From a virus (lineage: Duplodnaviria; Heunggongvirae; Uroviricota; Caudoviricetes), in IMG/VR virus record IMGVR_UViG_2740892209_000013: a stretch of DNA of 20,605 nt; one strand, written 5' to 3'. The translations under genes were made by a program, and so were the position numbers. Shown in pieces: positions 3,738 through 20,605 of this stretch. Numbering within the stretch: the first letter of the stretch is position 1; every line of letters starts with the position of its first letter. The notes beneath the pieces were generated by a model. It was not told the DNA's origin. It saw nothing but the letters and a program-made list of their open reading frames with translations, and made no database searches.

Positions 3738-3771
3738 GATAGTATATAGCGGGCAAGTTTTAGTTAATTTA

Positions 3772-4549: not shown

Positions 4550-4559
4550 TCAGTGGTTG

Positions 4560-4751: not shown

Positions 4752-4906
4752 ATCGCCTCCCGTTTATTATTTATCTCCTCAGCCAGCCGCTGGGCTTTCA
4801 GCGGATTTCGGATAACAGAAAGGCCGGGAAATACCCAGCCTCGCTTCGTAACGGAGTAGACGAAAGTGATCGTGCCTACGCGGATATTATCGTGAGGATG
4901 CTTCAT
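4724..4906 (-). CDS. Lambda orf60a-like small protein
   Basis: 60 aa from [24 protein letters not shown]...; stop overlaps exo start region as in lambda. Confidence 0.6.
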
Positions 4907-5583
4907 CGCCATTGCTCCCCAAATACAAAACCAATTTCAGCCAGTGCCTCGTCCATTTTTTCGATGAACTCCGGCACCATCTCGTCAAAACCCGCCATGT
5001 ACTTTTCATCCCGCTCAACCACGACATAATGCAGGCCTTCACGCTTCATACGCGGGTCATAGTTGGCAAAGTACCAGGCATCTTTTCGCGTCACCCACAT
5101 GCTGTACTGCACCTGGGCCATGTAAGCCGACTTTATGGCCTCGAAACCACCGAGCCTGAACTTCATGAAATCCCGGGAGGTAAACGGGCATTTCAGCTCA
5201 AGGCCGTTGCCGTCACTGCATAAACCATCGGGAGAGCAGGCGGTGCGCATACTTTCGTCGCGATAGATGATCGGGGATTCAGTAACATTCACGCCGGAAG
5301 TGAATTCAAACAGGGTTCTGGCGTCGTTCTCGTACTGTTTTCCCCAGGCCAGCGCCTTAGCATTAACTTCCGGAGCCACACCGGTGCAAACCTCAGCCAG
5401 CAGGGTGTGGAAGTAGGACATTTTCATGTCAGGCCACTTCTTTCCTGAGCGGGGCTTTGCTATCACGTTGTGAACTTCTGAAGCGGTGATGACGCCGAGC
5501 CGTAATTTGTGCCATGCATCATCCCCCTGTTCGACAGCTCTCACGTCGATCCCGGTACGCTGCAGGATAATGTCCGGTGTCAT
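4903..5583 (-). CDS. exo: Lambda exonuclease (Red-alpha), 5'-3' dsDNA exonuclease
   Basis: 226 aa, [65 protein letters not shown]..., matches lambda Exo; overlaps bet stop. Confidence 0.97.
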
Positions 5584-6365
5584 GCTGCCACCTTCTGCTC
5601 AGTGGCTTTCTGTTTCAGGAATCCAAGAGCTTTCACTGCTTCGGCCTGTGTCAGTTCTGACGATGCGCGAATGTCGCGGCGAAATATCTGGGAACAGAGC
5701 GGCAATAAGTCGTCATCCCATGTTTTATCCAGGGCGATTAGCAGAGTGTTAATCTCCTGCATGGTTTCATCGTTAACCGGAGTGATGTCGCGTTCCGGCT
5801 GGCGTTCTGCAGTGTATGCAGTATTTTCGACAATGCGCTCGGCTTCATCCTTGTCATAGATACCAGCAAATCCGAAGGCCAGACGGGCACACTGAATCAT
5901 AGCTTTATGCCGTAACATCCGTTTAGGATGCGACTGCCACGGCCCCGTGATTTCTCTGCCTTCGCGGGTTTTGAATGGTTCGCGGCGGCATTCATCCATC
6001 CATTCGGTAACGCAGATCGGATGATTACGGTCCTTGCGGTAAATCCGGCATGTACAGGATTCATTGTCCTGCTCAAAGTCCATGCCATCAAACTGCTGGT
6101 TTTCATTGATGATGCGGGACCAGCCATCAACGCCCACCACCGGAACGATGCCGTTCTGCTTATCAGGGAAGGCGTAAATTTCTTTCGTCCACGGATTAAG
6201 GCCGTACTGGTTGGCGACGATCAACAATGCGATGAACTGCGCATCGCTGGCATCGCCTTTAAATGCCGTCTGGCGAAGAGTGGTGATCAGTTCCTGTGGG
6301 TCGACAGAATCCATGCCGACACGTTCAGCCAGCTTCCCTGCCAGCGTTGCGAGTGCTGTACTCAT
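5580..6365 (-). CDS. bet: Red-beta single-strand annealing recombinase
   Basis: 261 aa, [82 protein letters not shown]..., matches lambda Bet. Confidence 0.97.
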
Positions 6366-6370
6366 CCGTT

Positions 6371-6787
6371 TTATACCTCTGAATCAATATCAACCTGATG
6401 GTGAGCAATGGTTTCAACCATGTACCGGATGTGTTCTGCCATGCGCTCCTGAAACTCAACATCGTCATCAAACGCACGGGTAATGGCTTTTTTGCTGGCC
6501 CCGTGGCGTTGCAAATGACCGATGCATAGCGATTCAAACAGGTGCTGGGGCAGGCCTTTTTCCATGTCGTCTGCCAGTTCTGCCTCTTTCTCTTCACGGG
6601 CTATCTGCTGGTAGTGACGCGCCCAGCTCTGAGCCTCAAGACGATCCTGAATGTAATAAGCGTTCATGGCCGAACTCCTGAAATAGCTGTGAAAATATCG
6701 CCCGCGAAATGCCGGGCTGATTAGGAAAACAGGAAAGGGGGTTAGTGAATGCTTTTGCTTGATCTCAGTTTCAGTATTAATATCCAT
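6371..6787 (-). CDS. gam: Gam, RecBCD inhibitor
   Basis: 138 aa, [61 protein letters not shown]..., matches lambda Gam. Confidence 0.97.
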
Positions 6788-6885
6788 TTTTTATAAGCGT
6801 CGACGGCCTCACGAAACATCTTTTCATCGCCAATAAAAGTGGCGATAGTGAATTTAGTCTGGATAGCCATAATTGTTTGATCCAT
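6742..6885 (-). CDS. kil: Kil, host cell-division (FtsZ) inhibitor
   Basis: 47 aa [47 protein letters not shown] inside the longer ORF-track frame 6742..7011; matches lambda Kil. Confidence 0.85.
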
Positions 6886-7018
6886 TTTTTGGGACTCCTG
6901 GCTGATTAAGTATGTCGATAAGGCGTTTCCATCCGTCACGTAATTTACGGGTGATTCGTTCAAGTAAAGATTCGGAAGGGCAGCCAGTAACAGGCCACCC
7001 TGCAATGGCATATTGCAT
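6854..7018 (-). CDS. cIII: CIII, inhibitor of FtsH-mediated CII degradation
   Basis: Own translation, below ORF-track cutoff: [54 protein letters not shown] (54 aa), near-identical to lambda CIII. Confidence 0.85.
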   Translation of the reverse strand: MQYAIAGWPVTGCPSESLLERITRKLRDGWKRLIDILNQPGVPKNGSNNYGYPD

Positions 7019-7090
7019 GGTGTGCTCCTTATTTATACATAACGAAAAACGCCTCGAGTGAAGCGTAATTGGTATGCGGTAACGCCGCGC

Positions 7091-7459
7091 TCAGGCGGCC
7101 TTGATAGTCATATCATCTGAATCAAATATTCCTGATGTATCGATATCGGTAATTCTTATTCCTTCACTACCATCCATTGGAGGCCATCCTTCCTGACCAT
7201 TTCCATCATTCCAGTCGAACTCACACACAACACCATATGCATTTAAGTCGCTTGAAATTGCTATAAGCAGAGCATGTTGCGCCAGCATGATTAATACAGC
7301 ATTTAATACAGAGCCGTGTTTATTGAGTCGGTATTCAGAGTCTGACCAGAAATTATTAATCTGGTGAAGTTTTTCCTCTGTCATTACGTCATGGTCGATT
7401 TCAATTTCTATTGATGCTTTCCAGTCGTAATCAATGATGTATTTTTTGATGTTTGACAT
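7091..7459 (-). CDS. ea10: Ea10 (lambda Ssb-like early protein)
   Basis: 122 aa, MSNIKKYIIDYDWKASIEIEIDHDVMTEEKLHQINNFWSDSEYRLNKHGSVLNAVLIMLAQ..., matches lambda Ea10. Confidence 0.85.
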   Translation of the reverse strand: MSNIKKYIIDYDWKASIEIEIDHDVMTEEKLHQINNFWSDSEYRLNKHGSVLNAVLIMLAQHALLIAISSDLNAYGVVCEFDWNDGNGQEGWPPMDGSEGIRITDIDTSGIFDSDDMTIKAA

Positions 7460-7477
7460 CTGTTCATATCCTCACAG

Positions 7478-7505
7478 ATAAAAAATCGCCCTCATCTTGG
7501 AGGGC
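7478..7505 (-). terminator. Intrinsic terminator-like hairpin (GCCCTC-n6-GAGGGC then TTTTTTAT on the minus strand) upstream of ea10 in the pL operon
   Basis: Stem-loop plus T-tract read on the minus strand; same element present in recalled lambda sequence. Confidence 0.4.
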
Positions 7506-7647
7506 AAAGAAGATTTCCAATAATCAGAACAAGTCGGCTCCTGTTTAGTTACGAGCGACATTGCTCCGTGTATTCACTCGTTGGAATGAATACACAGCGC
7601 TGTGTTTATTCTGTTGTTTGCGTGAAAATGAAATCCGCCTGAGCGGG

Positions 7648-8517
7648 TTATGACCACTTTTTGTTTGGGTTTCGTTGGTGAGCGTGGTTTACAGGATTAT
7701 TTGATATACCCCATAACTCTGACTCGCTTATCTCTACACGAGAGAAAGACCTGCTTTCTTTCAGTTCTTTTATAAACCTAGAACCTAAGATGACATCTAT
7801 TGTACCAGAAAGTTCTTGTAAAAGATCTTTGTTTTTTCTGAGGAAGAAAATATCTTCTTTATATTTAATTTTTACATAGAATTTATTCTGTATTTTTAAT
7901 ATATCAAAGCATGGCAGATATCTATATCCCTCATATTTTCGCCACTGCTTAACAATTATAACATCTTTTTCATTTACTGCATTAATCAGCCCAAGACAAA
8001 GTACAGGTATGAATATTCTATTGTCTGCCGAAAGCGTACAATTATCACCACCAGGCAAATATGTATAAATCATGTCGGAATTTTTATACGCATCAACGAA
8101 TGCACGTAAGAAGCGTACATATTTTTGCCATCCGTTTATACCGAATTTACCATATAAGTATTCTTTATTTGTTAGAAGAAAACTATTTGTATCAGGATCC
8201 TTATCTACAGACCTGTCGATAAGATCTCCAACTACGTTTACAAAGTCAAAGACAGAGTTTAATAAGAACAATTGTCTTTCAGTAGGGCGAATTTCAATTA
8301 TGTAGCCAGGATGAAGACGATATTGCATCTGCTTACGAAGTATACCGAACGCTTGGGTCCGAGCATCTGAAAGCAACTTCTTGTCGCCATCGCCGTGAGC
8401 ATTGTTTCTAATAAAACTGATATAATTTGCTAATTTTTCAGCCTCTTTTTTGTGTTTTTTTCGCTCTGATGCTGAGTCTATTGGTTTTGGTATGGACTTG
8501 TAATCAATCTTCTTCAT
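7648..8517 (-). CDS. Hypothetical 289-aa soluble protein, non-lambda cargo in the ral/sieB slot immediately downstream of N; no recognisable family
   Basis: 293-aa ORF (8529) or 289 aa from the second ATG at 8517, which has a GAGGT Shine-Dalgarno 6 nt upstream; first ATG overlaps the ancestral N stop (ATGA); very AT-rich relative to flanks; lambda homology breaks at about 7620 and 8530. Confidence 0.7.
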   Translation of the reverse strand: MKKIDYKSIPKPIDSASERKKHKKEAEKLANYISFIRNNAHGDGDKKLLSDARTQAFGILRKQMQYRLHPGYIIEIRPTERQLFLLNSVFDFVNVVGDLIDRSVDKDPDTNSFLLTNKEYLYGKFGINGWQKYVRFLRAFVDAYKNSDMIYTYLPGGDNCTLSADNRIFIPVLCLGLINAVNEKDVIIVKQWRKYEGYRYLPCFDILKIQNKFYVKIKYKEDIFFLRKNKDLLQELSGTIDVILGSRFIKELKESRSFSRVEISESELWGISNNPVNHAHQRNPNKKWS

Positions 8518-8525
8518 TACGTACC

Positions 8526-8849
8526 TCATGCCAATGGAATGGATTCCCCTTTAACCTTTTGTCTTCCTTGACAAGTTATACCGAACTCACCTGGCTTGCT
8601 ATACCAAACTCGATGATTCTTGCGCTCAATACGTTACAGGTTGCTTTCAATCTGTTCGTGGTATTCAGCCAGCACCGTAAGGTCTATCGGATTCAGTGCG
8701 CTTTCTACTCGTGATTTCGGTTTGCGATTCAGCGAGAGAATAGGGCGGTTAACTGGTTTAGCGCTTACCCCAACCAACAGGGGATTTGCTGCTTTCCATT
8801 GAGCCTGTTTCTCTGCGCGACGTTCGCGGCGGCGTGTTTGTGCATCCAT
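8526..8849 (-). pseudogene. N: Antiterminator N with in-frame ochre stop (TAA at 8634-8636, codon 72; lambda has CAA Gln); translated product would be 71 aa
   Basis: MDAQTRRRERRAEKQAQWKAANPLLVGVSAKPVNRPILSLNRKPKSRVESALNPIDLTVLAEYHEQIESNL then stop; the same frame continues RIERKNHRVWYSKPGEFGITCQGRQKVKGESIPLA, recognisably the N C-terminal region, to a TGA at 8526-8528. Confidence 0.8.
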
Positions 8850-9006
8850 CTGGATTCTCCTGTCAGTTAGCTTTGGTTGTGTGTGGGAGTCGTAGTCCTG
8901 AACGAAAACACCCCGCAATGGCACATTGGCAGCTAATCCGGATTCGCACTTCCGGCCAATGCTTCGTTTCGTATCACACACACCAAAGCCTTCTGCTTTG
9001 AATGCT

Positions 9007-9037
9007 GCCCTTCTTCAGGGCTTAATTTTTAAGAGCC
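9007..9037 (-). promoter_or_regulatory. nutL: nutL (boxA-like GGCTCTTAAAAATTAA and boxB hairpin GCCCTGAAGAAGGGC)
   Basis: boxB is identical to recalled lambda nutL boxB; boxA has one mismatch; lies between pL and N. Confidence 0.75.
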
Positions 9038-9082
9038 TCACCTTCAATGGTGGTCAGTGCGTCCTGCTGATGGCTTAAAATT

Positions 9083-9150
9083 ACAAGGAAGATTGTATGT
9101 TGTAAACAAGAAATATTGTAAAAAGGGGCGTGAAAAACAAACTCCATTGT
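9083..9150 (-). promoter_or_regulatory. Phage-434-type OL operators and pL: ACAAGGAAGATTGT (9083-9096), ACAAGAAATATTGT (9106-9119), ACAAACTCCATTGT (9137-9150)
   Basis: Three 14-bp ACAA-N6-TTGT sites, the 434 repressor operator architecture, read directly from the sequence; lambda homology ends at about 9070. Confidence 0.8.
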
Positions 9151-9200
9151 TTTTAAACGGAAAATAGTTTGTTTTTTTGTTATCGAGATTGAGGTGGGGA

Positions 9201-10553
<1,353 letters not shown>

Positions 10554-10561
10554 GACATTCC

Positions 10562-10593
10562 CGCTCTTACACATCCCAGCCCTGAAAAAGGGC
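10562..10593 (+). promoter_or_regulatory. nutR: nutR (boxA CGCTCTTACACA, boxB GCCCTGAAAAAGGGC)
   Basis: Lambda nutR boxA/boxB read directly, just downstream of cro. Confidence 0.8.
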
Positions 10594-10672
10594 ATCAAAA
10601 TAAACCACACCTATGGTGTATGCATTTATTTGCATACATTCAATCAATTGTTATCTAAGGAAATACTTACAT

Positions 10673-10966
10673 ATGGTTCGTGCAAACAAACGCAACGAGG
10701 CTCTACGAATCGAGAGTGCGTTGCTTAACAAAATCGCAATGCTTGGAACTGAGAAGACAGCGGAAGCTGTGGGAGTTGATAAGTCGCAGATCAGCAGGTG
10801 GAAGAGGGATTGGATTCCAAAGTTCTCAATGCTGCTTGCTGTTCTTGAATGGGGTGTCGTCGACGACGACATGGCTCGATTGGCACGACAAGTTGCTTCG
10901 ATTCTCACCAATAAAAAACGCCCGGCGGCAACCGAGCGTTCTGAACAAATCCAGATGGAATTCTGA
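10673..10966 (+). CDS. cII: CII transcriptional activator
   Basis: 97 aa MVRANKRNEALRIESALLNKIAMLGTEKTAEAVGVDKSQISRWKRDWIPKFSMLLAVLEWGVVDDDMARLARQVASILTNKKRPAATERSEQIQMEF, near-identical to lambda CII. Confidence 0.95.
   Translation: MVRANKRNEALRIESALLNKIAMLGTEKTAEAVGVDKSQISRWKRDWIPKFSMLLAVLEWGVVDDDMARLARQVASILTNKKRPAATERSEQIQMEF
10682..10695 (-). promoter_or_regulatory. pRE -35 region / CII binding site (TTGC-N6-TTGC on the minus strand)
   Basis: Reverse complement TTGCGTTTGTTTGC inside the cII 5' coding region, as in lambda pRE. Confidence 0.6.
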
Positions 10967-10988
10967 GGTTATTACTGGAACTATCAAC
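10910..10988 (-). ncRNA. oop: oop antisense RNA (about 77 nt, antisense to the cII 3' end)
   Basis: Plus strand aataaaaaacgcccggcggcaaccgagcgttctgaacaaatccagatgga...ctatcaac matches the complement of recalled lambda oop RNA, including its GC hairpin and U-tract terminator on the minus strand. Confidence 0.65.
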
Positions 10989-10998
10989 AGGAGTCATT

Positions 10999-11898
10999 AT
11001 GACAAATACAGCAAAAATACTCAACTTCGGCAGAGGTAACTTTGCCGGACAGGAGCGTAATGTGGCAGATCTCGATGATGGTTACGCCAGACTATCAAAT
11101 ATGCTGCTTGAGGCTTATTCAGGCGCAGATCTGACCAAGCGACAGTTTAAAGTGCTGCTTGCCATTCTGCGTAAAACCTATGGGTGGAATAAACCAATGG
11201 ACAGAATCACCGATTCTCAACTTAGCGAGATTACAAAGTTACCTGTCAAACGGTGCAATGAAGCCAAGTTAGAACTCGTCAGAATGAATATTATCAAGCA
11301 GCAAGGCGGCATGTTTGGACCAAATAAAAACATCTCAGAATGGTGTATCCCTCAAAACGAGGGAAAATCCCCTAAAACGAGGGATAAAACATCCCTCAAA
11401 TTGGGGGATTGCTATCCCTCAAAACAGGGGAACACAAAAGACACTAATACAAAAGAAAATAGAAAAGATTATTCGTCAGAGAATTCTGGCGAATCCTCTG
11501 ACCAGCCAGAAAACGACCTTTCTGTGGTGAAACCTGATGCTGCAATTCAGAGCGGCAGCAAATGGGGGACAGCAGAAGACCTGACCGCCGCAGAGTGGAT
11601 GTTTGACATGGTGAAGACTATCGCGCCATCAGCCAGAAAACCGAATTTTGCAGGGTGGGCTAACGATATCCGCCTGATGCGTGAACGTGACGGACGTAAC
11701 CACCGCGATATGTGTGTGCTGTTCCGCTGGGCCTGCCAGGACAACTTCTGGTCCGGTAATGTGCTGAGCCCGGCCAAACTCCGCGACAAGTGGACCCAGC
11801 TCGAAATCAACCGTAACAAGCAACAGGCAGTCGTGACAGCCAGCAAACCAAAACTCGACCTGACAAACACAGACTGGATTTACGGGGTGGATTTATGA
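10999..11898 (+). CDS. O: Replication initiator O
   Basis: 299 aa MTNTAKILNFGRGNFAGQERNVADLDDGYARLSNMLLEAYSGADLTKRQFKVLLAILRKTYGWNKPMDRITDSQLSEITKLP..., matches lambda O. Confidence 0.97.
   Translation: MTNTAKILNFGRGNFAGQERNVADLDDGYARLSNMLLEAYSGADLTKRQFKVLLAILRKTYGWNKPMDRITDSQLSEITKLPVKRCNEAKLELVRMNIIKQQGGMFGPNKNISEWCIPQNEGKSPKTRDKTSLKLGDCYPSKQGNTKDTNTKENRKDYSSENSGESSDQPENDLSVVKPDAAIQSGSKWGTAEDLTAAEWMFDMVKTIAPSARKPNFAGWANDIRLMRERDGRNHRDMCVLFRWACQDNFWSGNVLSPAKLRDKWTQLEINRNKQQAVVTASKPKLDLTNTDWIYGVDL
11345..11475. repeat. ori-lambda: four directly repeated O-binding iterons (ATCCCTCAAAACGAGGGA-type) plus adjacent AT-rich segment, inside the O gene
   Basis: Four tandem about 19-bp repeats each with an internal inverted repeat (tccctc...gaggga), followed by an A+T-rich run. 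Confidence 0.85.
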
Positions 11899-12596
11899 AA
11901 AACATCGCCGCACAGATGGTTAACTTTGACCGTGAGCAGATGCGTCGGATCGCCAACAACATGCCGGAACAGTACGACGAAAAGCCTCAGGTACAGCAGG
12001 TAGCGCAGATCATCAACGGTGTGTTCAGCCAGTTACTGGCAACTTTCCCGGCGAGCCTGGCTAACCGTGACCAGAACGAACTGAACGAAATCCGCCGCCA
12101 GTGGGTTCTGGCTTTCCGGGAAAACGGGATCACCACAATGGAACAGGTTAACGCAGGAATGCGCGTAGCCCGTCGGCAGAATCGACCATTTCTGCCATCA
12201 CCCGGGCAGTTTGTTGCATGGTGCCGGGAAGAAGCATCCGTTATCGCCGGACAGCCAAACGTCAGCGAGCTGGTTGATATGGTTTACGAGTATTGCCGGA
12301 AGCGAGGCCTGTATCCGGATGCGGAGTCTTATCCGTGGAAATCAAACGCGCACTACTGGCTGGTTACCAACCTGTATCAGAACATGCGGGCCAATGCGCT
12401 TACTGATGCGGAATTACGGCGCAAGGCTGCCGATGAACTGTCCTGTATGACCGCACGAATTAACCGTGGTGAGGCTATACCTGAACCAGTAAAACAACTT
12501 CCTGTCATGGGCGGTAGACCTCTAAATCGTGCACAGGCTCTGGCGAAGATCGCAGAAATCAAAGCTAAGTTTGGGCTGAAAGGAGCAAGTGTATGA
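11895..12596 (+). CDS. P: Replication protein P (DnaB helicase loader)
   Basis: 233 aa MKNIAAQMVNFDREQMRRIANNMPEQYDEKPQVQQVAQIINGVFSQLLATF..., matches lambda P; ATGA overlap with O stop. Confidence 0.97.
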   Translation: MKNIAAQMVNFDREQMRRIANNMPEQYDEKPQVQQVAQIINGVFSQLLATFPASLANRDQNELNEIRRQWVLAFRENGITTMEQVNAGMRVARRQNRPFLPSPGQFVAWCREEASVIAGQPNVSELVDMVYEYCRKRGLYPDAESYPWKSNAHYWLVTNLYQNMRANALTDAELRRKAADELSCMTARINRGEAIPEPVKQLPVMGGRPLNRAQALAKIAEIKAKFGLKGASV

Positions 12597-12883
12597 CGGG
12601 CAAAGAGGCAATTATTCATTACCTGGGGACGCATAATAGCTTCTGTGCGCCGGACGTTGCCGCGTTAACAGGCGCAACAGTAACCGGCATAAATCAGGCC
12701 GCGGCTAAAATGGCACGGGCAGGTCTTCTGGTTATCGAAGGTAAGGTCTGGCGAACGGTGTATTACCGGTTCGCTACTAGGGAAGAACGGGAAGGAAAGA
12801 TGAGCACGAACCTGATTTTTAAGGAGTGTCGCCAGAGTGCCGCGATGAAACGGGTATTGGCGGTATATGGAGTTAAAAGATGA
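12593..12883 (+). CDS. ren: Ren (Rex exclusion resistance)
   Basis: 96 aa MTGKEAIIHYLGTHNSFCAPDVAALTGATVTGINQAAAKMARAGLLVIEGKVWRTVYYRF..., matches lambda Ren. Confidence 0.9.
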   Translation: MTGKEAIIHYLGTHNSFCAPDVAALTGATVTGINQAAAKMARAGLLVIEGKVWRTVYYRFATREEREGKMSTNLIFKECRQSAAMKRVLAVYGVKR

Positions 12884-12907
12884 CCATCTACATCACTGAG
12901 CTAATAA

Positions 12908-12940
12908 CAGGCCTGCTGGTAATCGCAGGCCTTTTTATTT
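12908..12940 (+). terminator. tR2 intrinsic terminator
   Basis: Hairpin AGGCCTGC-tggtaatc-GCAGGCCT followed by TTTTTATTT between ren and ninB, as in lambda. Confidence 0.7.
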
Positions 12941-12956
12941 GGGGGAGAGGGAAGTC

Positions 12957-13397
12957 ATGAAAAAACTAACCTTTGAAATTCGATCTCCAGCACATCAGCA
13001 AAACGCTATTCACGCAGTACAGCAAATCCTTCCAGACCCAACCAAACCAATCGTAGTAACCATTCAGGAACGCAACCGCAGCTTAGACCAAAACAGGAAG
13101 CTATGGGCCTGCTTAGGTGACGTCTCTCGTCAGGTTGAATGGCATGGTCGCTGGCTGGATGCAGAAAGCTGGAAGTGTGTGTTTACCGCAGCATTAAAGC
13201 AGCAGGATGTTGTTCCTAACCTTGCCGGGAATGGCTTTGTGGTAATAGGCCAGCCAACCAGCAGGATGCGTGTAAGCGAATTTGCGGAGCTATTAGAGCT
13301 TATACAGGCATTCGGTACAGAGCGTGGCGTTAAGTGGTCAGACGAAGCGCGACTGGCTCTCGAATGGAAAGCGCGATGGGGAGATCGGGCTGCATGA
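12957..13397 (+). CDS. ninB: NinB (Orf family recombination mediator)
   Basis: 146 aa from MKKLTFEIRSPAHQQNAIHAVQQILPDPTKPIVVTIQERNRSLDQNRKLWACLGDVSRQVEWHGRW..., matches lambda NinB. Confidence 0.9.
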   Translation: MKKLTFEIRSPAHQQNAIHAVQQILPDPTKPIVVTIQERNRSLDQNRKLWACLGDVSRQVEWHGRWLDAESWKCVFTAALKQQDVVPNLAGNGFVVIGQPTSRMRVSEFAELLELIQAFGTERGVKWSDEARLALEWKARWGDRAA

Positions 13398-13921
13398 CTA
13401 TCAAATCAAATACGCCAGCACACGACAAGGACTGCTGGCAAACGCCGCTTTGGCTTTTTGATGCACTGGATATTGAGTTTGGATTCTGGCTGGATTCGGC
13501 AGCGAGCGACAAAAACGCTCTGTGCGCTCACTGGCTAACTGAGGCTGACGACGCGCTAAATTCTGAGTGGATAAGCCACGGTGCAATCTGGAATAACCCA
13601 CCGTACAGCAATATCAGGCCGTGGGTGGAAAAAGCCGCTGAGCAGTGCATACAACAGCGACAGACGGTAGTGATGCTTGTGCCAGAGGATATGTCTGTCG
13701 GATGGTTCAGCAAGGCTCTGGAGAGTGTTGACGAAGTTCGTATTATCACTGATGGACGGATTAATTTTATCGAACCATCGACAGGGCTGGAGAAGAAGGG
13801 AAACAGCAAAGGCTCCATGCTGCTGATTTGGCGACCGTTCATTAGTCCTCGACGGATGTTTACTATCGTATCCAAAGCGGCATTGATGGCGATCGGGCAG
13901 GGCGTCAGGAGGGCGGCATGA
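13394..13921 (+). CDS. Phage DNA N6-adenine methyltransferase (Dam-like, NPPY motif), orphan; occupies the lambda ninC/ninD position
   Basis: 175 aa from [26 protein letters not shown]...; catalytic NPPYS motif present; start overlaps ninB stop (ATGA); no adjacent restriction endonuclease ORF. Confidence 0.8.
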
Positions 13922-14100
13922 GGCGACAACGACGAAGTTTCACCGACATCATCTGCGAAAACTGCAAATACCTTCCAACGAAACGCTCCAGAAATAAACG
14001 CAAGCCAATCCCAAAAGAATCTGACGTAAAAACCTTCAACTACACGGCTCACCTGTGGGATATCCGGTGGCTAAGACATCGTGCGAGGAATACAAGGTGA
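13918..14100 (+). CDS. ninE: NinE
   Basis: 60 aa [60 protein letters not shown], matches lambda NinE. Confidence 0.85.
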
Positions 14101-14267
14101 TTGACCCAAATCGAAGTTACGAACAAGAAAGCGTCGAGCGGGCTTTAACGTGCGCTAATTGCGGTCAGAAGCTGCATGTGCTGGAAGTTCACGTGTGTGA
14201 GCACTGCTGTGCAGAGCTGATGAGCGATTCGAATAGCTCGATGCACGAGGAAGAAGATGATGGCTAA
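14097..14267 (+). CDS. ninF: NinF (probable GTG start overlapping ninE stop)
   Basis: [56 protein letters not shown], matches lambda NinF; start codon assignment is uncertain. Confidence 0.65.
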
Positions 14268-14871
14268 ACCAGCGCGAAGACGATGTAAAAACGATGAATG
14301 TCGGGAATGGTTTCACCCTGCATTCGCTAATCAGTGGTGGTGCTCTCCAGAGTGTGGAACCAAGATAGCACTCGAACGACGAAGTAAAGAACGCGAAAAA
14401 GCGGAAAAAGCAGCAGAGAAGAAACGACGACGAGAGGAGCAGAAACAGAAAGATAAACTTAAGATTCGAAAACTCGCCTTAAAGCCCCGCAGTTACTGGA
14501 TTAAACAAGCCCAACAAGCCGTAAACGCCTTCATCAGAGAAAGAGACCGCGACTTACCATGTATCTCGTGCGGAACGCTCACGTCTGCTCAGTGGGATGC
14601 CGGACATTACCGGACAACTGCTGCGGCACCTCAACTCCGATTTGATGAACGCAATATTCACAAGCAATGCGTGGTGTGCAACCAGCACAAAAGCGGAAAT
14701 CTCGTTCCGTATCGCGTCGAACTGATTAGCCGCATCGGGCAGGAAGCAGTAGACGAAATCGAATCAAACCATAACCGCCATCGCTGGACTGTCGAAGAGT
14801 GCAAGGCGATCAAGGCAGAGTACCAACAGAAACTCAAAGACCTGCGAAACAGCAGAAGTGAGGCTGCATGA
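14257..14871 (+). CDS. ninG: NinG / Rap recombination protein
   Basis: 204 aa [63 protein letters not shown]..., matches lambda NinG. Confidence 0.9.
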
Positions 14872-15533
14872 ATATCTACGAAAGAATTGATGGCAGCAAA
14901 TACCGAAATATTTGGGTAGCTGGCGACCTGCACGGATGCTACACGAACCTGATGAACAAACTGGATACGATTGGATTCGACACCAAAAAAGACCTGCTCA
15001 TCTCGGTTGGCGATTTGGTTGATCGCGGTACAGAGAACGTCGAATGTCTGGAATTAATCACATTCCCCTGGTTCAGAGCTGTGCGTGGAAACCATGAGCA
15101 AATGATGATTGATGGCTTATCAGAGCGTGGAAACGTTAATCACTGGCTGCTTAATGGCGGTGGCTGGTTCTTTAATCTCGATTACGACAAAGAGACTCTG
15201 GCTAAAGTTCTTGCCCATAAAGCAGAAGAACTTCCGTTAATCATCGAACTGGTGAGCAAAGATAAAAAATATGTCATTTGCCACGCCGATTATCCTTGTG
15301 ATAAATACGAGTTTGGAAAGCCAGTTGATCATCAGCAGGTAATCTGGAACCGCGAACGAATCAGCAACTCACAAGACGGGATCGTGAAAGAAATCAAAGG
15401 CGCGGACACGTTCATCTTTGGTCATACGCCAGCAGTGAAACCACTCAAATTTGCCAACCAGATGTATATCGATACTGGCGCAGTGTTCTGCGGAAACCTC
15501 ACATTGATTCAGGTACAGGGAGAAGGCGCATGA
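14868..15533 (+). CDS. Lambda-type Ser/Thr protein phosphatase (orf221 / NinI, PPP family)
   Basis: 221 aa with metallophosphatase motifs GDLHG, GDLVDRG, GNHE; matches lambda PPase. Confidence 0.9.
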
Positions 15534-15619
15534 GACTCGAAAGCGTAGCTAAATTTCATTCGCCAAAAAGCCCGATGATGAGCGACTCACTACTGGCCAC
15601 AGTTTATTGGTTTTCGTAA
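15530..15619 (+). pseudogene. Q: Remnant of lambda-type antiterminator Q (first 20 codons only, then unrelated sequence and stop after 29 codons)
   Basis: ATGA overlap with phosphatase stop as in lambda; [20 protein letters not shown] identical to the lambda Q N-terminus, then SLLATVYWFS-stop; lambda Q is 207 aa. Confidence 0.7.
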
Positions 15620-15744
15620 CTGAGTCATTTTATTATTTTATTGCAACTTTTAATCTTTTATAGTGCGAAATAAATGGAGCTGGCATTCATTTCGCACTTT
15701 ATGTTTTTGTTGGACTTATGTTATTTTGATTGAATTCAATTCAG

Positions 15745-16704
15745 TTAAAAAAAGAAGGTGATTGCTCCATTTATAAATGAATAGTCATCCCCTGTCTTGA
15801 ATTCTGATGTTACTTTATTAAATGCTAGTGTGAAGGCTACAGGTGCATACCCAATTGTTGCGCCAACTTGATATTCATCAACAGTTTTGTTTAGCGATAC
15901 TGTTGTTTGTTTCGTCTGTATTGTTTTTCCTTCGAGAGTATAGTTGCGATTGACATCTCGTCTTTCCATACCTGCAAAAATCTTGTATTTGAATCCGCTT
16001 GTATCGGACATATGCATTAAACCACGGGGAGCCAGCAGACCAAAGCCATTATCCGAATTGAAGGTTTTATCATTACCAATGGCAATGGTTGCGCCATATG
16101 CTACATATTGAAATAAGTTTCCAGTAACAGCAGAAACTTCAGGGTATAATCCAACATTAGCACCTAAAATATCCATACTTGGTGTCATGGATAGCATCCC
16201 TTTTACAGTATAACCGTAGCGATTCTCTATTTGATCATCCCATGCATGATATTTTTCTGCCCCAATAATCTCATGAGCTTTATTTTGTACTTTCTGACCG
16301 CCTGCGTCGGGGCCAACAACACCTATGTCAGTACCTAATCGATAGCGAATCCAGTCATTCGCAAGGGAGTTCCATTCAATACCAGTGTGAGTGTATGCAC
16401 TAAAAGCTCTGTCTCCAGTTACAGCTGTGTTGTGTCTTTTATTACTGCCTGATGGAGAGTAAATATCTTGCGCAATATGGAGAGATAATTGGCTCGAGTC
16501 TGAGATATCGTGGCTATATCCCAGAAATAAGCCTTGTGAGTAATCATCTCTGTTTTCATGTTTATTGCCATAAATATCATTAAGTATTGGTTGAAACTTC
16601 CCTGCATCATCATTTGCTAATGATAATGCAAGGCTGTTCGCGATAGCTGAACACGTGGTAAATGACAGAGCAATAAAGACGCCAGCGATGACACTTTTTT
16701 TCAT
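15745..16704 (-). CDS. Outer-membrane beta-barrel protein, probably an LpxR-family lipid A 3'-O-deacylase (cargo gene)
   Basis: 319 aa; signal peptide MKKSVIAGVFIALSFTTCSAIA; C-terminal aromatic ...GAITFFF typical of beta-barrel OMPs; length and motifs resemble LpxR as recalled (not searched); AT-rich with a long AT-rich 5' region. Confidence 0.55.
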   Translation of the reverse strand: MKKSVIAGVFIALSFTTCSAIANSLALSLANDDAGKFQPILNDIYGNKHENRDDYSQGLFLGYSHDISDSSQLSLHIAQDIYSPSGSNKRHNTAVTGDRAFSAYTHTGIEWNSLANDWIRYRLGTDIGVVGPDAGGQKVQNKAHEIIGAEKYHAWDDQIENRYGYTVKGMLSMTPSMDILGANVGLYPEVSAVTGNLFQYVAYGATIAIGNDKTFNSDNGFGLLAPRGLMHMSDTSGFKYKIFAGMERRDVNRNYTLEGKTIQTKQTTVSLNKTVDEYQVGATIGYAPVAFTLAFNKVTSEFKTGDDYSFINGAITFFF

Positions 16705-17177
16705 ATGTTATTGTCTTCCTTTTTTTTGAATGGTGCGCGTATTTTACATACATGAGTTTGTAATACAAGGTGCGTAATCAATATGATGTTTTATAATTGC
16801 GTGAGACAATTGATTTATTCGTTTTTTATTGCGGTTTTTATTATCTTTTAATGTAACGGTGTTTTTATTAAGTGTGTTTGCGTGGTGTTTTATGTTTTTA
16901 TAATTTTTATTTTATTAAATTTAAATGCATTAGTAATGGCTATTCTATATAGCAATATAAGAACTGTTACAAAAAAAGGGGGGCAATTACAGGTAGTTAT
17001 GGATGATGAGTGAAACAGATATTGGAGAACCGGGGAATGAATGATGTCTGAGTCTTATATATCAGAACTCCTTCGCTGTCGCTGGGGGCTCCTGTGCTTA
17101 TGTCGTTTCCCCGATTCGGTTTTGAACGATTACCGAATGTTGAAGAATTATGCCAAAATATAGAAAGGATTTACTGC

Positions 17178-17867
17178 ATGAATACCCAATATTTACAGTA
17201 TGTTCGTGAGCAACTTATGGCAGCTACTGCTGACTTGAACGGAGCAACGAAAGGCCAGCTCGAAGCCTGGCAGGAGCATGCACAATTTGATACTGGTACA
17301 TACAAACGAAAGAAGCCGCGCATTCTGGATGTGGTAACTGGCAAGATGATTACGCTGGATAATACGCCGACTTCCGGTAAGCAGTCGTACGCAAAAGGTT
17401 CATCCATTGCTTTGGTCAGCCCGGTTGAATTCTCAACCTCTTCATGGCGCCGCGCGGTTTTGTCTCTCGATGAACATCAGAAAGCATGGTTGCTTTGGTG
17501 TTACAGCGAAAGCGTTCGATGGGGGCATCAGGTCACCATAACGCAATGGGCATGGAGCGAGTTTAAAGATTTGTTAAGTAACAGAAAAATTGCAGGTAAG
17601 ACACTGGATCGCCTGAAGACGTTAATCTGGCTGGCTGCACAGGATGTGAAGAGCGAACTTGCAGGGCGTGAGGCCTATGAATACCAGACACTGGCATCAT
17701 TGGTGGGAGTGACAACAAAAAACTGGTCCGAGACATTTACTGAACGCTGGGTTGCAATGAAGCACATTTTTCTACAGCTTGATAGTGATGCTTTATTGCT
17801 TGTGACGAGAACACGTTCAAAACAAAAGGCAGCATTTTTACAGCAAAATATTGCAAAACTGGATTAA
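17178..17867 (+). CDS. Putative late-gene antiterminator of a non-lambda Q family (by position); start uncertain (17094 or 17178)
   Basis: 229 aa from the ATG with an AAGGA Shine-Dalgarno; no Cys4 zinc finger; followed immediately by a consensus-like promoter and a terminator, the arrangement expected of Q / pR' / tR'. Confidence 0.4.
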   Translation: MNTQYLQYVREQLMAATADLNGATKGQLEAWQEHAQFDTGTYKRKKPRILDVVTGKMITLDNTPTSGKQSYAKGSSIALVSPVEFSTSSWRRAVLSLDEHQKAWLLWCYSESVRWGHQVTITQWAWSEFKDLLSNRKIAGKTLDRLKTLIWLAAQDVKSELAGREAYEYQTLASLVGVTTKNWSETFTERWVAMKHIFLQLDSDALLLVTRTRSKQKAAFLQQNIAKLD

Positions 17868-17879
17868 AAGCCATATACT
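17851..17879 (+). promoter_or_regulatory. Candidate late promoter pR' (-35 TTGCAA, 17-bp spacer, -10 TATACT)
   Basis: Near-consensus sigma-70 hexamers with optimal spacing, overlapping the 3' end of the Q-like gene. Confidence 0.45.
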
Positions 17880-17914
17880 TCATGCAAATTTGGTATGTTG
17901 TAAAAAATGTATAA

Positions 17915-17940
17915 ACCCGCTGCCGAGTGGGTTTTTTTTA
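17915..17940 (+). terminator. Candidate tR' intrinsic terminator (ACCCGCU-GCCG-AGUGGGU then 8 U)
   Basis: 7-bp stem including one G-U pair, followed by TTTTTTTT, about 35-60 nt downstream of the candidate pR'. Confidence 0.55.
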
Positions 17941-18078
17941 TGCCCTGAGTTGTACTTGTACGGTAAACATGCTGGCTGCTATGTAATAGAGTTTTTTTAG
18001 CCTGTAACCTCTTGACGGCATTGAATTGCTTTTGTTATGAGTTGTAAGCCAATGTTATCATCTTGTATTGGGGTGGTT

Positions 18079-18795
18079 ATGAAGGATGGTGCGCTGCTCA
18101 GGAGTTCTTCACTTTTTATTGCCTACATGGGATGCCTTGGATGGGGGAGTGCTTATTTCTATGGATGGGGTACTTCTTTTTACTACGGCTTCCCATGGTG
18201 GATTGTAGGTGCAGGTGTTGATGATGTTGCCAGAAGTTTATTTTTTGCAGTTATCGTCATTGCTATATTTCTTATCGGTTGGGGTATTGGTGTTGTATTC
18301 TTTTTCGCAGTGAAAAGAAAACATTCTATGCAAGAGCTAAATGTATTTCGCCTTTATTTTGCTGTGGAATTATTGTTTGTGCCGGCAATTATTGAGTTTT
18401 CTATATTGAGACAGAAGATTCAGGTACCTCTTTTGCTACTGTCAGCAGCGATTGCGCTGGCGGTTACAATTTCGATAAGATCTTATGGGCGATTTTTATC
18501 GGTATCATGCTTCTATGATAAGCCATTTATAAAAAAACATTTTTTTGAGATTGTGATGATTGCTTTTGTGGCATATTTTTGGCTTTTTTCATTTCTGACA
18601 GGATATTACAAACCACAGTTTAAGAAAGAATATGAAATGATTAATTATAATGATGGTTGGTATTATGTTCTTGCTCGTTATGATAATTGTCTGGTTTTGT
18701 CTACTTCTTTCAATGCAGGTAGTAAAAGGTTTGTCATTTATCAATCAGCACAAGATAAGAATCTTCAGGTTGATATTGTAAGGACCAGAATTTAA
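18079..18795 (+). CDS. Hypothetical polytopic inner-membrane protein (about 4-5 TM segments plus C-terminal domain) in the Q-to-lysis cargo slot; start uncertain (18037 / 18052 / 18079)
   Basis: 252-aa ORF; ATG at 18079 has a GGGGTGG Shine-Dalgarno; hydrophobic segments FFAVIVIAIFLIGWGIGVVFFFAV, VPLLLLSAAIALAVTISI, FEIVMIAFVAYFWLFSFL; AT-rich. Confidence 0.6.
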   Translation: MKDGALLRSSSLFIAYMGCLGWGSAYFYGWGTSFYYGFPWWIVGAGVDDVARSLFFAVIVIAIFLIGWGIGVVFFFAVKRKHSMQELNVFRLYFAVELLFVPAIIEFSILRQKIQVPLLLLSAAIALAVTISIRSYGRFLSVSCFYDKPFIKKHFFEIVMIAFVAYFWLFSFLTGYYKPQFKKEYEMINYNDGWYYVLARYDNCLVLSTSFNAGSKRFVIYQSAQDKNLQVDIVRTRI

Positions 18796-19224
18796 TTGGC
18801 TGCATAAATAATATTTTAAGTTGCAAGTTGGCTATTCGTAGGAATAGAACCTTAGGCATGCTGAATGCGTTTTCTGAACATTGTTTTATAAACTGTGTCT
18901 GCTTGCTGTTGTGATCCTGCTTTTAGTGATGGTGATGATGGATTTCACCAGCAGGATAATGTTGGTACTGACTGATGGCGCTCTGGTCTGCGGCATTGTG
19001 GTATTGCTGTGGCCGATGATGAAAGAACAGAATGAATAATTCTTGACTTTTTTGTTTACTGTTTATTAAAAAATCAACCGCATGGTGAATCCTCCTTGGA
19101 GGGGCTAAATGATCGAGTTTTAAGGGCACGTAGCGAGTTCTGTTTGATCATTGCAGAACTTAGCGGGAGGCGCCATGCGTACATCACTAGTGTTATTCCT
19201 TTTATCATTTTCCTTGTGAGTTCT

Positions 19225-19251
19225 GGCTGCGCATTGCGCAGCCTTTTTTTT
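19225..19251 (+). terminator. Strong intrinsic terminator (GGCTGCGC-att-GCGCAGCC then 8 T)
   Basis: 8-bp perfect GC-rich stem plus TTTTTTTT, upstream of nanS-p. Confidence 0.6.
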
Positions 19252-19337
19252 ATGACCTGCCACTGGCAGATGGTCATCCTGTGATTTGATTCCGCTTCCG
19301 GCTTTTTAACTCTGTTCCTCTACACGGGAGAAATTCG

Positions 19338-20605
19338 ATGTCGATTAAACATTACGATGTTGTCAGGGCGGCNNNNNNNNNNNNNNNNNNNNNNNNNNNN
19401 NNNNGTCGCCGTCAGACCTTGCGGAAAAGCTGACACACAAACTGAAAGAGGGCTGGCAGCCATACGGCGGACCGGTTGCCATTACGCCGTACACACTGAT
19501 GCAGGCGGTGGCTATTGAAGGAGAGCCACAGGTCGGCCCTTCATCTGAGCCGGATTGGTACTACGTCATCGTACTGGCCGGGCAGTCCAATGCCATGGCT
19601 TACGGTGAAGGGCTTCCGCTGCCGGATTCATACGATGCTCCGGATCCGCGCATTAAACAGCTGGCGCGCCGCAGTACAGTGACGCCGGGCGGGGCTGCCT
19701 GCAGATATAACGATATTATTCCGGCTGACCACTGTCTGCATGATGTGCAGGATATGAGTACGCTGAATCATCCGAGGGCTGACCTGAGCAAAGGGCAGTA
19801 CGGCTGTGTCGGTCAGGGTTTACATATTGCCAAAAAACTGCTCCCGTATATCCCGAATAACGCGGGGATCCTGCTGGTACCATGCTGTCGTGGTGGTTCG
19901 GCATTTACCCAGGGCGCGGAGGGGACATTCAGCGAGTCCACGGGGGCCAGTCAGGATTCGGCACGCTGGGGGGTGGGCAAGCCGTTATATCAGGATCTGA
20001 TTTCCCGCACAAAAGCGGCATTGCAGAAAAATCCCAAAAACGTTCTGCTGGCCGTCTGCTGGATGCAGGGTGAGTTTGACATGAGCGCCGCCACCCACGC
20101 ACAGCAACCTGCGCTGTTTACAGCCATGCTGACACAGTTTCGTGCTGACCTCTCCGTGTTTAACGCGCAGTGCCATGGTGGCAGTGCTGCAGATGTGCCG
20201 TGGGTTTGTGGTGACACGACGTATTACTGGAAAAATACATACGCTACCCAGTACGACACCGTGTACGGCGGGTATAAAAACAGGGAGAGTGAGGGCGTTT
20301 ATTTTGTGCCCTTCATGACAGACGGTAACGGCGTCAATACCGCCACTAACGCGCCGGCAGAAGATCCGGATATTCCGGCATCAGGATATTACGGTGCGGC
20401 ATCGAGAACGAATGGAAACCAGGTATCATCAAACCGCCCGACACATTTCAGTTCATGGGCGCGCAGGAGCATTATTCCGGATCGTCTGGCAACCGCTATT
20501 CTGAACGCAGCCGGGCGCACCTCAGCCTTCATCAGTGGTAAGGCACCGGAAATCAAACCCTCGCCCGGCGGCAACACGCCATCGGGTCCGTCTGCAGATA
20601 CGTCC
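19338..20605 (+). CDS. nanS: Prophage sialate 9-O-acetylesterase NanS-p (SASA/SGNH-like, GQSN motif); 3' end beyond window; interrupted by an assembly gap
   Basis: Starts MSIKHYDVVRA, then after the N-run SPSDLAEKLTHKLKEGWQPYG...DWYYVIVLAGQSNAMAYGEGLP...; open to the end of the window; position matches the nanS-p gene that follows stx in Stx phages. Confidence 0.75.
19373..19404. other. Assembly gap (32 N) inside the nanS-p coding sequence
   Basis: Run of n characters; reading frame before and after differs by 2 if the gap were real length. Confidence 0.95.

Follow-up and report, generated by a model that had tools for sequence, protein, structure and literature searches.

An lpxR cassette and a Q82-type antiterminator between the nin region and the late operon of a phage 434-type prophage

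Genes and signals between the nin region and the late terminator

The DNA considered here, called the window below, is a stretch of 20,605 nucleotides (IMG/VR record IMGVR_UViG_2740892209_000013). Its part from 1331 to 20605 is a phage 434 prophage, which is 99.8% identical to OL657226 in alignment and 100% identical to E. coli O84:H7 Trh52. The prophage is inserted at the lambda attachment site, adjoining ybhC, and its int, xis, recombination, replication and nin genes are intact open reading frames. The features at the boundary between the nin region and the late operon are collected in Table 1; a search of Rfam at gathering thresholds gave no match inside 15530-17867.

Table 1. Features at the nin-to-late-operon boundary, in window coordinates
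Feature	Position	Strand	Basis
NinI-type serine/threonine phosphatase gene	14868..15533	+	PF00149, E 3e-16; NCBIfam PRK11439, E 1e-81
Lambda Q 5' remnant	15530..15619	+	20 lambda codons, 9 unrelated codons, TAA; 29-aa ORF
Left junction J1 of the lpxR cassette	15590..15606		lambda homology fades, lambda Q codons 21-25
Strong hairpin (15662-15698) with T-rich tail TTATGTTTTTGTTG	15662..15712	+	fold energies; inverted repeat; function inferred
lpxR, outer-membrane lipid A 3'-O-deacylase precursor, 319 aa	15745..16704	-	PF09982; match to 3FID
AT-rich lpxR upstream region, 29% GC	16705..17024		composition; regulation from literature on the identical Sakai locus
Right junction J2, in last ~16 nt of rus (rusA)	17025..17040	+	alignments to JJ1886 and phage 82; blastn
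ylcG / phage 82 orf45 homologue, 40 codons	17041..17163	+	PGAP 'YlcG family protein'; 434 record 'YlcG-like'; alignment to phage 82 orf45
Q82-family late-gene antiterminator, 229 aa	17178..17867	+	PF06323; similarity to phage 82 Q
Perfect TTGC-N6-TTGC CII-type site, antisense at Q 3' end	17843..17856	-	paQ-like element in 434 record
Late promoter PR'	17851..17879	+	-35 TTGCAA, 17-nt spacer, -10 TATACT; predicted start near 17886 (promoter scan)
Extended -10-like element TGGTATGTT (17891-17899, about +6 to +14) with A/T-rich stretch	17891..17912	+	conservation
Intrinsic terminator tR'	17913..17942	+	9-bp stem 17913-17934, T run to about 17941; annotated in OL657226

The phosphatase gene is the last intact lambda-type nin gene, and homology to lambda reaches about 15600. 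Its TGA stop overlaps the ATG of a Q reading frame as ATGA at 15530, and from there to 15589 the sequence matches codons 1-20 of lambda Q (NC_001416) in 60 of 60 nucleotides. Beyond 15589 the similarity decays, with 12 of the next 18 bases matching, and at about 15606 none is left; the frame ends at the TAA in 15617-15619. This is what the first-pass annotation had described: an intact lambda Q start overlapping the phosphatase stop, and 20 identical codons followed by unrelated and soon terminated sequence. According to a Pfam search, the domain of lambda Q (PF03589) covers residues 113-199 and is hence absent from the stub, for whose 29-aa product Pfam gives no match, and which is labelled as a Q N-terminal fragment both by PGAP and in OL657226. 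The 29-codon ORF is a pseudogene stub, that is, a gene fragment and not a member of the lambda Q family.

Placed 47 nt beyond the stop of lpxR is a hairpin with a fold energy of -16.4 kcal/mol (z -3.3) on the plus strand and -19.1 kcal/mol (z -6.3) on the minus strand. Judged from its sequence, it resembles an intrinsic terminator on the plus strand, and on the lpxR strand it is a stable hairpin at the 3' end that lacks a U tract.

The lpxR gene itself has a GC content of 39.4%, to be compared with 46.1% in the prophage to its left. Its product matches PF09982 with 137.4 bits (cut-off 26) and E 6.8e-40, residues 10-318 corresponding to positions 2-320 of the 323 in the profile, and it is identical to Salmonella LpxR (3FID) in 220 of 296 residues (74.3%; E 3.6e-153), with one gap of a single residue. 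Precursor residues N31, D32, S56, Q140, H144 and E150 align to the active-site and Ca2+-site residues N9, D10, T34, Q118, H122 and E128 (listed in PMC6863877 with reference to Rutten et al. 2009), so that all six positions are kept, with T34 changed to S. The identification of an AT-rich, oppositely oriented gene for a 319-aa outer-membrane protein as an LpxR-type deacylase, for which the first-pass annotation had proposed an alignment to the Salmonella protein and a check of the catalytic residues, is borne out over the full length of the family profile. A hydrophobic N-terminus, MKKSVIAGVFIALSFTTCSAIA, read directly from the sequence, precedes residue 24, the first to align to mature 3FID, which places the start of the mature protein near residue 23-24. 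The C-terminus is ITFFF, so that both a signal peptide and an aromatic beta-barrel signal for outer-membrane targeting are seen by eye. No NCBIfam model matches either LpxR or the Q protein; this reflects missing models, and Pfam and the direct comparisons are decisive. Base for base, lpxR is identical to ECs_0814 of O157:H7 Sakai and to CPT_434_65 of phage 434, and from its identity to the Sakai allele the protein is predicted to strip lipid A of its 3'-acyloxyacyl group.

From the ATG of lpxR (16704) to the ATG of Q (17178) there are 473 bp, in agreement with the divergent AT-rich intergenic region of 470 bp recorded in the first-pass annotation. This distance is, however, not intergenic throughout: it contains ylcG/orf45, the small gene located ahead of Q in modules of the phage 82 type, for whose product Pfam gave no match, and the non-coding part is reduced to 16705-17040, 336 bp with 29.2% GC.

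The protein encoded by the 229-aa ORF matches PF06323, the Pfam family of the Q82 type according to PMC9388147, with 306.8 bits and E 1.1e-91, residues 4-219 corresponding to positions 1-216 of the 220 in the profile. PF06323 is the sole Pfam family found at E <= 0.01, and neither lambda Q (PF03589) nor Q21 (PF06530) is matched. In a gap-free alignment to phage 82 Q (CAA63332; X92588), 203 of 229 residues are identical and 213 positive (E 1e-153), and identity to phage 434 Q is 100%. The proposal of a late antiterminator different from lambda Q, together with the suggested HMM search against the Q families, has in this way led to the Q82 family and to no other, with E 1e-91 for the profile and 89% identity to phage 82 Q.

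The sequence downstream of Q has the order that characterises Q82-type loci, in which Q is immediately followed by a promoter, a -10-like pause element and then a terminator. Both PR' hexamers are kept in an alignment of five Q82-type loci with Q proteins that are 48-100% identical, and since the homology to 88%-identical Q modules reaches ~17900, PR' travels with Q. In the same five-locus alignment T.TG.TAT is invariant, and by analogy the element TGGTATGTT is a predicted sigma-dependent pause element for the loading of Q, with a pause near +25 (~17910); for 82 PR', a pause at +25 and an A/T-rich backtrack element have been reported (PMC3326312). A hairpin and a T run are present at the position of tR' in every Q82-type locus compared, and tR', which the first-pass annotation had located at 17915-17940 and for which both the stem and the T run were recovered, is predicted to be the terminator that Q-modified polymerase must read through, with a terminated leader RNA of about 56 nt.

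Overlapping the -35 of PR' is the CII-type site, one of only three perfect TTGC-N6-TTGC sequences in the window, all on the minus strand (2698, 10682 and 17843). The sites at 2698 and 10682 we take to be the lambda PI and PRE promoters. Downstream of the site at 17843-17856 no good -10 was found, and the relaxed form TTGYN6TTGY is not enriched in the window as a whole (8 sites, 5.2 expected), so that only the strict form is suggestive of the predicted paQ-like CII site.

Mosaic structure and spread of the region

Two junctions delimit the cassette that carries lpxR. On its left side, at J1, the homology to lambda is lost within Q. On its right side, at J2, homology to phage 82 and to other prophages with the gene order rusA-ylcG-Q begins, and prophages without lpxR begin to match at window positions ~17027-17033. 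The flanks of the cassette gave no blastn match in the other sequences compared, and DNA similarity to other lpxR loci is confined to the coding sequence and about 46 nt upstream of it. A 12-nt direct repeat near the two junctions (GATGATGAGCGA at 15574 and GATGATGAGTGA at 17002) was considered as a target duplication or microhomology and rejected, because an estimated ~7 such pairs, matching in 11 of 12 positions, are expected by chance in 2.6 kb and neither copy lies at a junction.

The mosaic consists of three parts. The left part is a lambda-type nin region that ends 20 codons into lambda Q. The middle part is a low-GC cassette of ~1.43 kb (about 15600-17025), carrying lpxR on the opposite strand together with its own AT-rich upstream region. 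The right part starts in the last ~16 nt of rus and comprises orf45/ylcG, the Q82-type Q, PR', the predicted pause element and tR'. The lambda Q stub is most probably a recombination scar without function.

The region is widespread in this form. Among 5426 complete E. coli genomes, 620 carry an lpxR with at least 99% identity, and the whole module, scored as the 2.7 kb at a coverage of at least 80% in complete E. coli genomes, occurs in an equal number and is there at least 99% identical throughout. The same 2.7 kb are contained in phage 434 virion DNA, which was sequenced independently, and across 15500-18050 the window, phage 434 and Sakai Sp3 are near-identical. Since 620 genomes and the independent virion DNA share these 2.7 kb, a chance pattern and an assembly artefact are ruled out. 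With high confidence, the region can be assigned to a lambdoid prophage of the phage 434 type, where it forms the boundary between nin region and late operon, built as a three-part mosaic with lpxR and a Q82-type Q, and this assignment meets no contradicting evidence.

Function of Q and of lpxR in the prophage

In the proposed scheme Q would be the only intact late activator of the phage. After induction, N-antiterminated transcription from PR would have to cross the whole lpxR cassette in the antisense direction before it reaches Q, and Q would then load onto RNA polymerase paused ~25 nt past PR' and cause readthrough of tR' into the late genes. For this readthrough and this pause we rely on the 89% identity to phage 82 Q, which has been studied biochemically, and on the conserved promoter, pause and terminator sequences, and activity of Q is inferred from the viability of phage 434 with this gene as its only full-length Q. 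A search of PDB sequences with Q gave chance-level matches only (E 0.12 and 0.4) and no structure of a Q82-family protein, and because no such structure has been solved, the molecular mechanism of Q82 is less certain than those of lambda Q and Q21.

It is conceivable that the prophage is defective, and that the 229-aa Q-like gene with its promoter and terminator are decaying relics without antitermination. The related Sakai Sp3 has indeed pseudogenised int, bet and portal genes, and the Q fragment close by is a sign of recombination damage to genes in the region. But plaque-forming phage 434, whose sequence comes from purified virions, has exactly the same Q, PR' and tR', the full-length ORF aligns to phage 82 Q with no gap, and the genes for integration, excision, recombination and replication, as well as the nin genes, are intact here, which makes decay of Q very unlikely. 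Still more improbable is that the 29-codon stub is itself a functional small gene, which either couples translation to that of the phosphatase or yields a peptide that interferes with the lambda-type Q of superinfecting phages. The stub still overlaps the phosphatase stop as ATGA and is kept in all genomes that bear the module; the near-identity of the entire 2.7 kb in those genomes does, however, make this conservation uninformative about selection. Moreover, the Q domain is missing, the last 9 codons are junction sequence, and both annotation pipelines treat the stub as a fragment.

The product of ECs_0814 in Sakai Sp3 has lipid A deacylase activity and weakens innate immune signalling (Ogawa et al. 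2018, as related in PMC6863877 and PMC6393859), and the published data on Sakai lpxR, as far as they are recounted there, comprise 3'-O-deacylation, reduced TLR4 signalling and activation by Ler and Pch (Ogawa et al. 2018 Cell Microbiol). By the same secondary accounts (PMC6863877, PMC6393859), a role of LpxR as lysogenic-conversion factor, which the first-pass annotation had regarded as plausible, was already demonstrated with the identical Sakai Sp3 gene. LpxR has further been proposed as a candidate vaccine antigen, MC001 (PMC6863877).

In the prophage considered here, LpxR would be exported to the outer membrane and there, as a Ca2+-dependent hydrolase, take the 3'-acyloxyacyl group off lipid A, with less stimulation of TLR4 as the expected outcome. 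Transcription of lpxR would be independent of the lytic programme of the phage and switched on by Ler and Pch in LEE-positive hosts. These points have been shown for the identical Sakai gene, according to the accounts just cited. The region upstream of lpxR is presumed, by analogy with the Sakai locus, to contain the promoter of lpxR as well as the site at which H-NS silences and Ler and Pch activate the gene. A promoter scan for lpxR gave 7 sites when 7.5 were expected; this is not above chance, so that no promoter can be named, and the one weak sigma-70-like site upstream of the gene (minus strand, 16970-16942) is no better than chance.

This kind of control leads to a further reading, in which lpxR is a silent passenger in the present host, either silenced by H-NS when Ler and Pch are absent or latent in the membrane, and is of consequence only in LEE-positive backgrounds. 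The upstream GC content of 29% is typical of DNA bound by H-NS, expression of the identical Sakai gene is described in the same reports as needing both Pch and Ler, and across E. coli lpxR strongly co-occurs with LEE and pch. The LpxR of Salmonella is reportedly latent under standard growth conditions. Against silence stand the coding sequence, which is preserved in all 620 genomes with no sign of decay, and the intact active site. We hold a silent lpxR to be a real possibility for this host, somewhat less probable than its opposite, and it concerns the regulation and not another identity of the gene.

In E. coli, lpxR is found almost only in this prophage module, and being almost exclusive to one module it is a textbook lysogenic-conversion 'moron', situated between early and late phage control. 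Its product reduces the inflammatory potency of lipid A. The placement might also couple virulence regulation to phage development, though we consider this unlikely. As transcription from PR towards Q passes the hairpin at 15662-15712 and then ~1 kb of head-on lpxR, strong transcription of lpxR driven by Ler and Pch could delay or lower the expression of Q and thereby lysis; conversely, induction of the prophage could shut lpxR off through antisense transcription. Another, modest possibility is that for sixty years a gene that modifies lipid A has gone unnoticed in laboratory 434 lysogens of K-12.

Comparison with known systems

The elements described here, which the first-pass annotation had not recognised as those of phage 434 and Sp3, are already annotated in phage 434 and in Sakai, and the activity of lpxR and its control by Ler and Pch are published, so that they are not new; what the present analysis adds is the mapping of the two cassette junctions and the count of 620 in 5426 genomes. 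The closest known system is phage 434 itself (OL657226; Feiss et al. 2022, PMC9119081), where the genes CPT_434_63 to CPT_434_68 include lpxR and Q coding sequences that are 100% identical to those of the window, and where the Q N-terminal fragment, LpxR, the YlcG-like protein, the Q82-like activator, the terminator and the paQ-like site all have their annotation. The window differs by an 8-bp indel, ATTTTATT (15627-15634), and by one base and one homopolymer length in the AT-rich region. In the window the phage is integrated by ybhC in a natural isolate, whereas the DNA of the 434 record was packaged in virions.

In Sakai Sp3, lpxR (ECs_0814) likewise lies between a phosphatase gene (pphA) and Q (ECs_0815), at the same ybhC site. 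Sp3 is degraded, with int, bet and portal pseudogenes, while the copy in the window looks intact. Outside the coding sequences there are four differences between them, three in the AT-rich region (one base and two 1-bp lengths) and the fourth, one T fewer, in the T run of tR'.

A scan of species-representative genomes with LpxR, which as a single-protein query reaches close relatives only, gave a single locus, in Citrobacter, where the homologue is chromosomal and adjoins phoPQ. The lpxR gene of Salmonella is chromosomal and is not known to be prophage-borne. The LpxR of Salmonella Typhimurium (3FID; Rutten et al. 2009) has a precursor of the same length (319 aa), the same active-site residues and the same C-terminal FFF as that of the window, apart from the T at position 34, where the window protein has S; the identity of 74.3% extends over the mature protein.

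Phage 82 (X92588) has in common with the window the rus-orf45-Q order, with overlapping starts and stops in orf45-Q. It differs in that rus is lost here but for its last ~16 nt, with the lpxR cassette in its place, and in 26 amino acids of Q. Downstream, the layout of promoter, -10-like element and terminator would give a pause near +25, which is the position reported for 82 PR' (PMC3326312).

With lambda Q and Q21, the Q of the window shares genomic position and regulatory job, but no detectable sequence similarity, and the lambda Q, Q21 and Q82 families are regarded as analogues (PMC9388147). The first-pass annotation recognised the mosaic junction, the cargo gene and the exchange of one regulator for another from the raw sequence.

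Limits and setting of the lpxR cassette

The first 60 bases from the ATG of the lambda Q stub (20 codons) align identically with lambda, 12 of the next 18 (bases 61-78) match, and thereafter similarity is lost; by megablast, the homology to lambda stops at 15600. The alignment and the reading of the ORFs thus bear out the first-pass annotation, which had claimed a lambda Q remnant of 20 identical codons overlapping the phosphatase stop. Since the Pfam domain of lambda Q comprises its residues 113-199, the stub lacks the domain. It is named 'antitermination protein, incomplete' by PGAP and an N-terminal lambda Q fragment in the record of Escherichia phage 434, and it is the scar of a recombination event.

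Features of the region in which lambda Q is replaced
Feature	Position	Strand	Remarks
NinI-type phosphatase gene	end 15533		TGA overlaps ATG at 15530; ORF listing and direct reading
Lambda Q stub	15530-15619		29-codon frame opened by ATG 15530; ORF listing and direct reading
lpxR	15745-16704	minus	319 codons; ORF listing and direct reading
ylcG/orf45 homologue	17041-17163		precedes Q
Q	17178-17867		229 codons; ORF listing and direct reading
Predicted PR', sigma-70-type	17851-17879	plus	TTGCAA-17-TATACT; overlaps final Q codons
Extended -10-like element TGGTATGTT	17891-17899		about +6 to +14 if start is near 17886
tR' hairpin and T run	17913-17942	plus

On the left, lambda homology is lost across 15590-15606, and on the right, prophages with rusA-ylcG-Q but without lpxR start to match the window at 17027-17033, where alignments with E. 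coli JJ1886 and phage 82 identify 17025-17040 as the last ~16 nt of rus. From these limits follows a cassette of about 1.43 kb, flanked by what is left of two genes, the 5' end of lambda Q and the 3' end of rus. From 46% in the prophage left of lpxR, GC drops to 39% in the gene and to 28-29% in both its flanks. A strong hairpin (15662-15698; z of -6.3 for the lpxR strand) stands between the Q stub and the stop codon of lpxR, and a T-rich tail comes after it on the plus strand only. The hairpin may terminate lpxR transcripts, serve as an extra N-suppressible terminator ahead of Q, or both.

The window is 99.8% identical to phage 434 (OL657226) from 1331 to its end, while 1-1330 is the host gene ybhC, at the lambda attachment site; over its full length the window is matched with 100% identity by the chromosomes of two E. 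coli strains, O84:H7 Trh52 and Z1323HEC0016. When window, phage 434 and Sp3, a prophage of E. coli O157:H7 Sakai, are aligned over 15500-18050, the coding sequences of lpxR and Q show no differences. Elsewhere the three differ only by an 8-bp indel (15627-15634), a single T in the T run of tR' and, in the AT-rich region, a small number of changes of base or of homopolymer length. The 8-bp unit, ATTTTATT, occurs twice in the window and in Sp3 and once in sequenced phage 434, in the AT-rich spacer between Q stub and hairpin. The thermoregulator RNA element of lambda cIII (RF01804) is clearly matched at 6973-7031 (minus strand; 81.9 bits), in keeping with a lambda-type early left operon.

The LpxR protein and the distribution of its gene

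The outer-membrane protein, previously judged to be an LpxR-type lipid A 3'-O-deacylase, matches the LpxR family of Pfam over its full length (E 7e-40) and the crystal structure of Salmonella LpxR (3FID; E 4e-153; identity at 220 of the 296 aligned positions), so that the assignment stands. For EHEC LpxR six active-site residues are listed, N9, D10, T/S34, Q118, H122 and E128 in mature numbering (PMC6863877), and all six positions are kept, as N31, D32, S56, Q140, H144 and E150, with S56 at the position of T34. According to Ogawa et al. 2018, as related in PMC6863877 and PMC6393859, the identical Sakai allele deacylates lipid A at the 3' position, reduces phagocytosis and TLR4-dependent signalling, and reportedly requires Pch and Ler for expression. 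Transcriptome data place lpxR in the Ler-driven LEE modulon, and across strains the gene is found together with LEE and pch. As cargo the gene is self-contained: its expression would be from the prophage, in LEE-positive hosts under Ler/Pch, and its product would trim lipid A.

Among 5426 complete E. coli genomes, 622 carry lpxR, in 620 of them with at least 99% identity and usually in one copy. Exactly 620 complete genomes likewise have 80% or more of the 2.7 kb that extends from the end of the phosphatase gene to tR', and from these equal counts follows that lpxR in E. coli occurs essentially always within this single module. The remaining two genomes have a divergent lpxR on a plasmid amid IS fragments, representing another route, independent and rare, by which the gene entered E. 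coli. On the 101-kb plasmid pJNE23-001_1 (NZ_AP045065.1, 6001-6960, ~80-83% nucleotide identity), it is surrounded by IS/transposase fragments, with a gene for an M91 family zinc metallopeptidase a few kb away.

Similarity among lpxR loci ends with the coding sequence: it reaches just 46 nt farther upstream in the plasmid copy (80-83% identity) and has no extension in a chromosomal copy of Citrobacter (72% identity). In Citrobacter sp. ANG330 the gene adjoins phoPQ in non-phage surroundings, the homologue (3995-4960, 73% identical) lying directly upstream of the PhoP/PhoQ pair (5564-7701), an arrangement in which an enzyme that modifies lipid A is suggestively paired with the regulator of lipid A remodelling.

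The Q82-type antiterminator and the late operon

The Q82 (PF06323), lambda Q (PF03589) and Q21 (PF06530) families have no mutual sequence similarity (PMC9388147). The sole Pfam match of the 229-aa protein is to PF06323, over its full length (E 1e-91), and the profiles of the other two families are not matched. With 203 of 229 residues identical, gap-free, to Q of phage 82 (X92588, a short GenBank record), the proposal of an alternative late antiterminator is supported; a sequence search of the PDB gave no matching structure for it. In both phages Q follows a small gene that is known as orf45 in phage 82 and annotated as ylcG in E. coli. The very AT-rich 470-bp intergenic region described earlier is therefore not wholly non-coding.

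Q is the only intact late activator in a phage of known viability. Rightward early transcription would have to cross the cassette antisense to lpxR to reach it, and Q would then act at PR'/tR' in the manner of phage 82 Q. The assignments of PR', pause element and start are inferred from conservation. In an alignment of five Q82-type loci (window, E. coli JJ1886, coliphage 689R5, Klebsiella phage RothD and Cronobacter phage phiES15; Q proteins 48-100% identical to that of the window), both promoter hexamers (-35 and -10) are kept throughout, as is the T.TG.TAT core, and all five have a hairpin and T run shortly downstream. In the window TGGTATGTT is followed by an A/T-rich stretch and then by the terminator, which the first-pass annotation had located, at 17915-17940. 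At 82 PR' a sigma-dependent pause occurs ~25 nt from the start, with an A/T-rich backtrack element (PMC3326312), and the layout here predicts a pause at the same distance. In prophages with an 88%-identical Q, DNA homology reaches ~17900 and no further, which means that promoter and pause element move with Q, while the sequence from the terminator onward is exchangeable. Taken together, the predicted leader and tR' (17874-17943, plus strand) weakly match, at full length, a family of Salmonella sRNAs, STnc240 (RF02074; 28 bits, gathering score 55, E 0.4), which may itself represent a Q82-type late leader RNA that has been terminated.

The first gene past tR' (18037-18795, plus strand) encodes a 252-aa multi-pass membrane protein without a match in Pfam or NCBIfam, and 18881-19039 (plus strand) a 52-aa DUF3927 protein, TciB in the 434 record; both are late-operon cargo, with GC of ~36%. 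The stretch 19050-19254 (plus strand), which ends in a hairpin and U run, matches a family of prophage sRNAs, STnc100 (RF02076), at full length but below threshold (41.4 bits, gathering score 47, E 1.2e-6). A 2026 preprint describes Hfq-bound sRNAs of EPEC, PasD1 and PasD2, that are related to STnc100, with more than 98% of their genes at most 10 kb from lpxR and Q and a PasD variant carried by two phage genomes. The element is probably a PasD-type sRNA gene. Just downstream, after the small membrane-protein genes, lies a gene for a SASA family carbohydrate esterase, which contains a run of 32 masked bases (N) at 19373-19404.

Relation to known prophages

The interpretation of the region is correct but already known, and there is no novelty of substance, since the GenBank record of phage 434 (genome announcement PMC9119081) and RefSeq name each element. 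Minor additions are the coordinates of the two junctions, the remnant of rus, the layout of the PR' pause element as conserved across Q82-type loci, and the genome count, by which lpxR in E. coli cannot be separated from the module. What lpxR does in this prophage setting is published: from the Sakai work on the identical gene, in the accounts cited here, follows that the LpxR call and the idea of lysogenic conversion were right but not new. Sp3 has the same gene order as the window, pphA (ECs_0813), lpxR (ECs_0814) and Q (ECs_0815), the latter two annotated in Sakai as 'lipid A 3'-O-deacylase' and 'phage antiterminator Q'.
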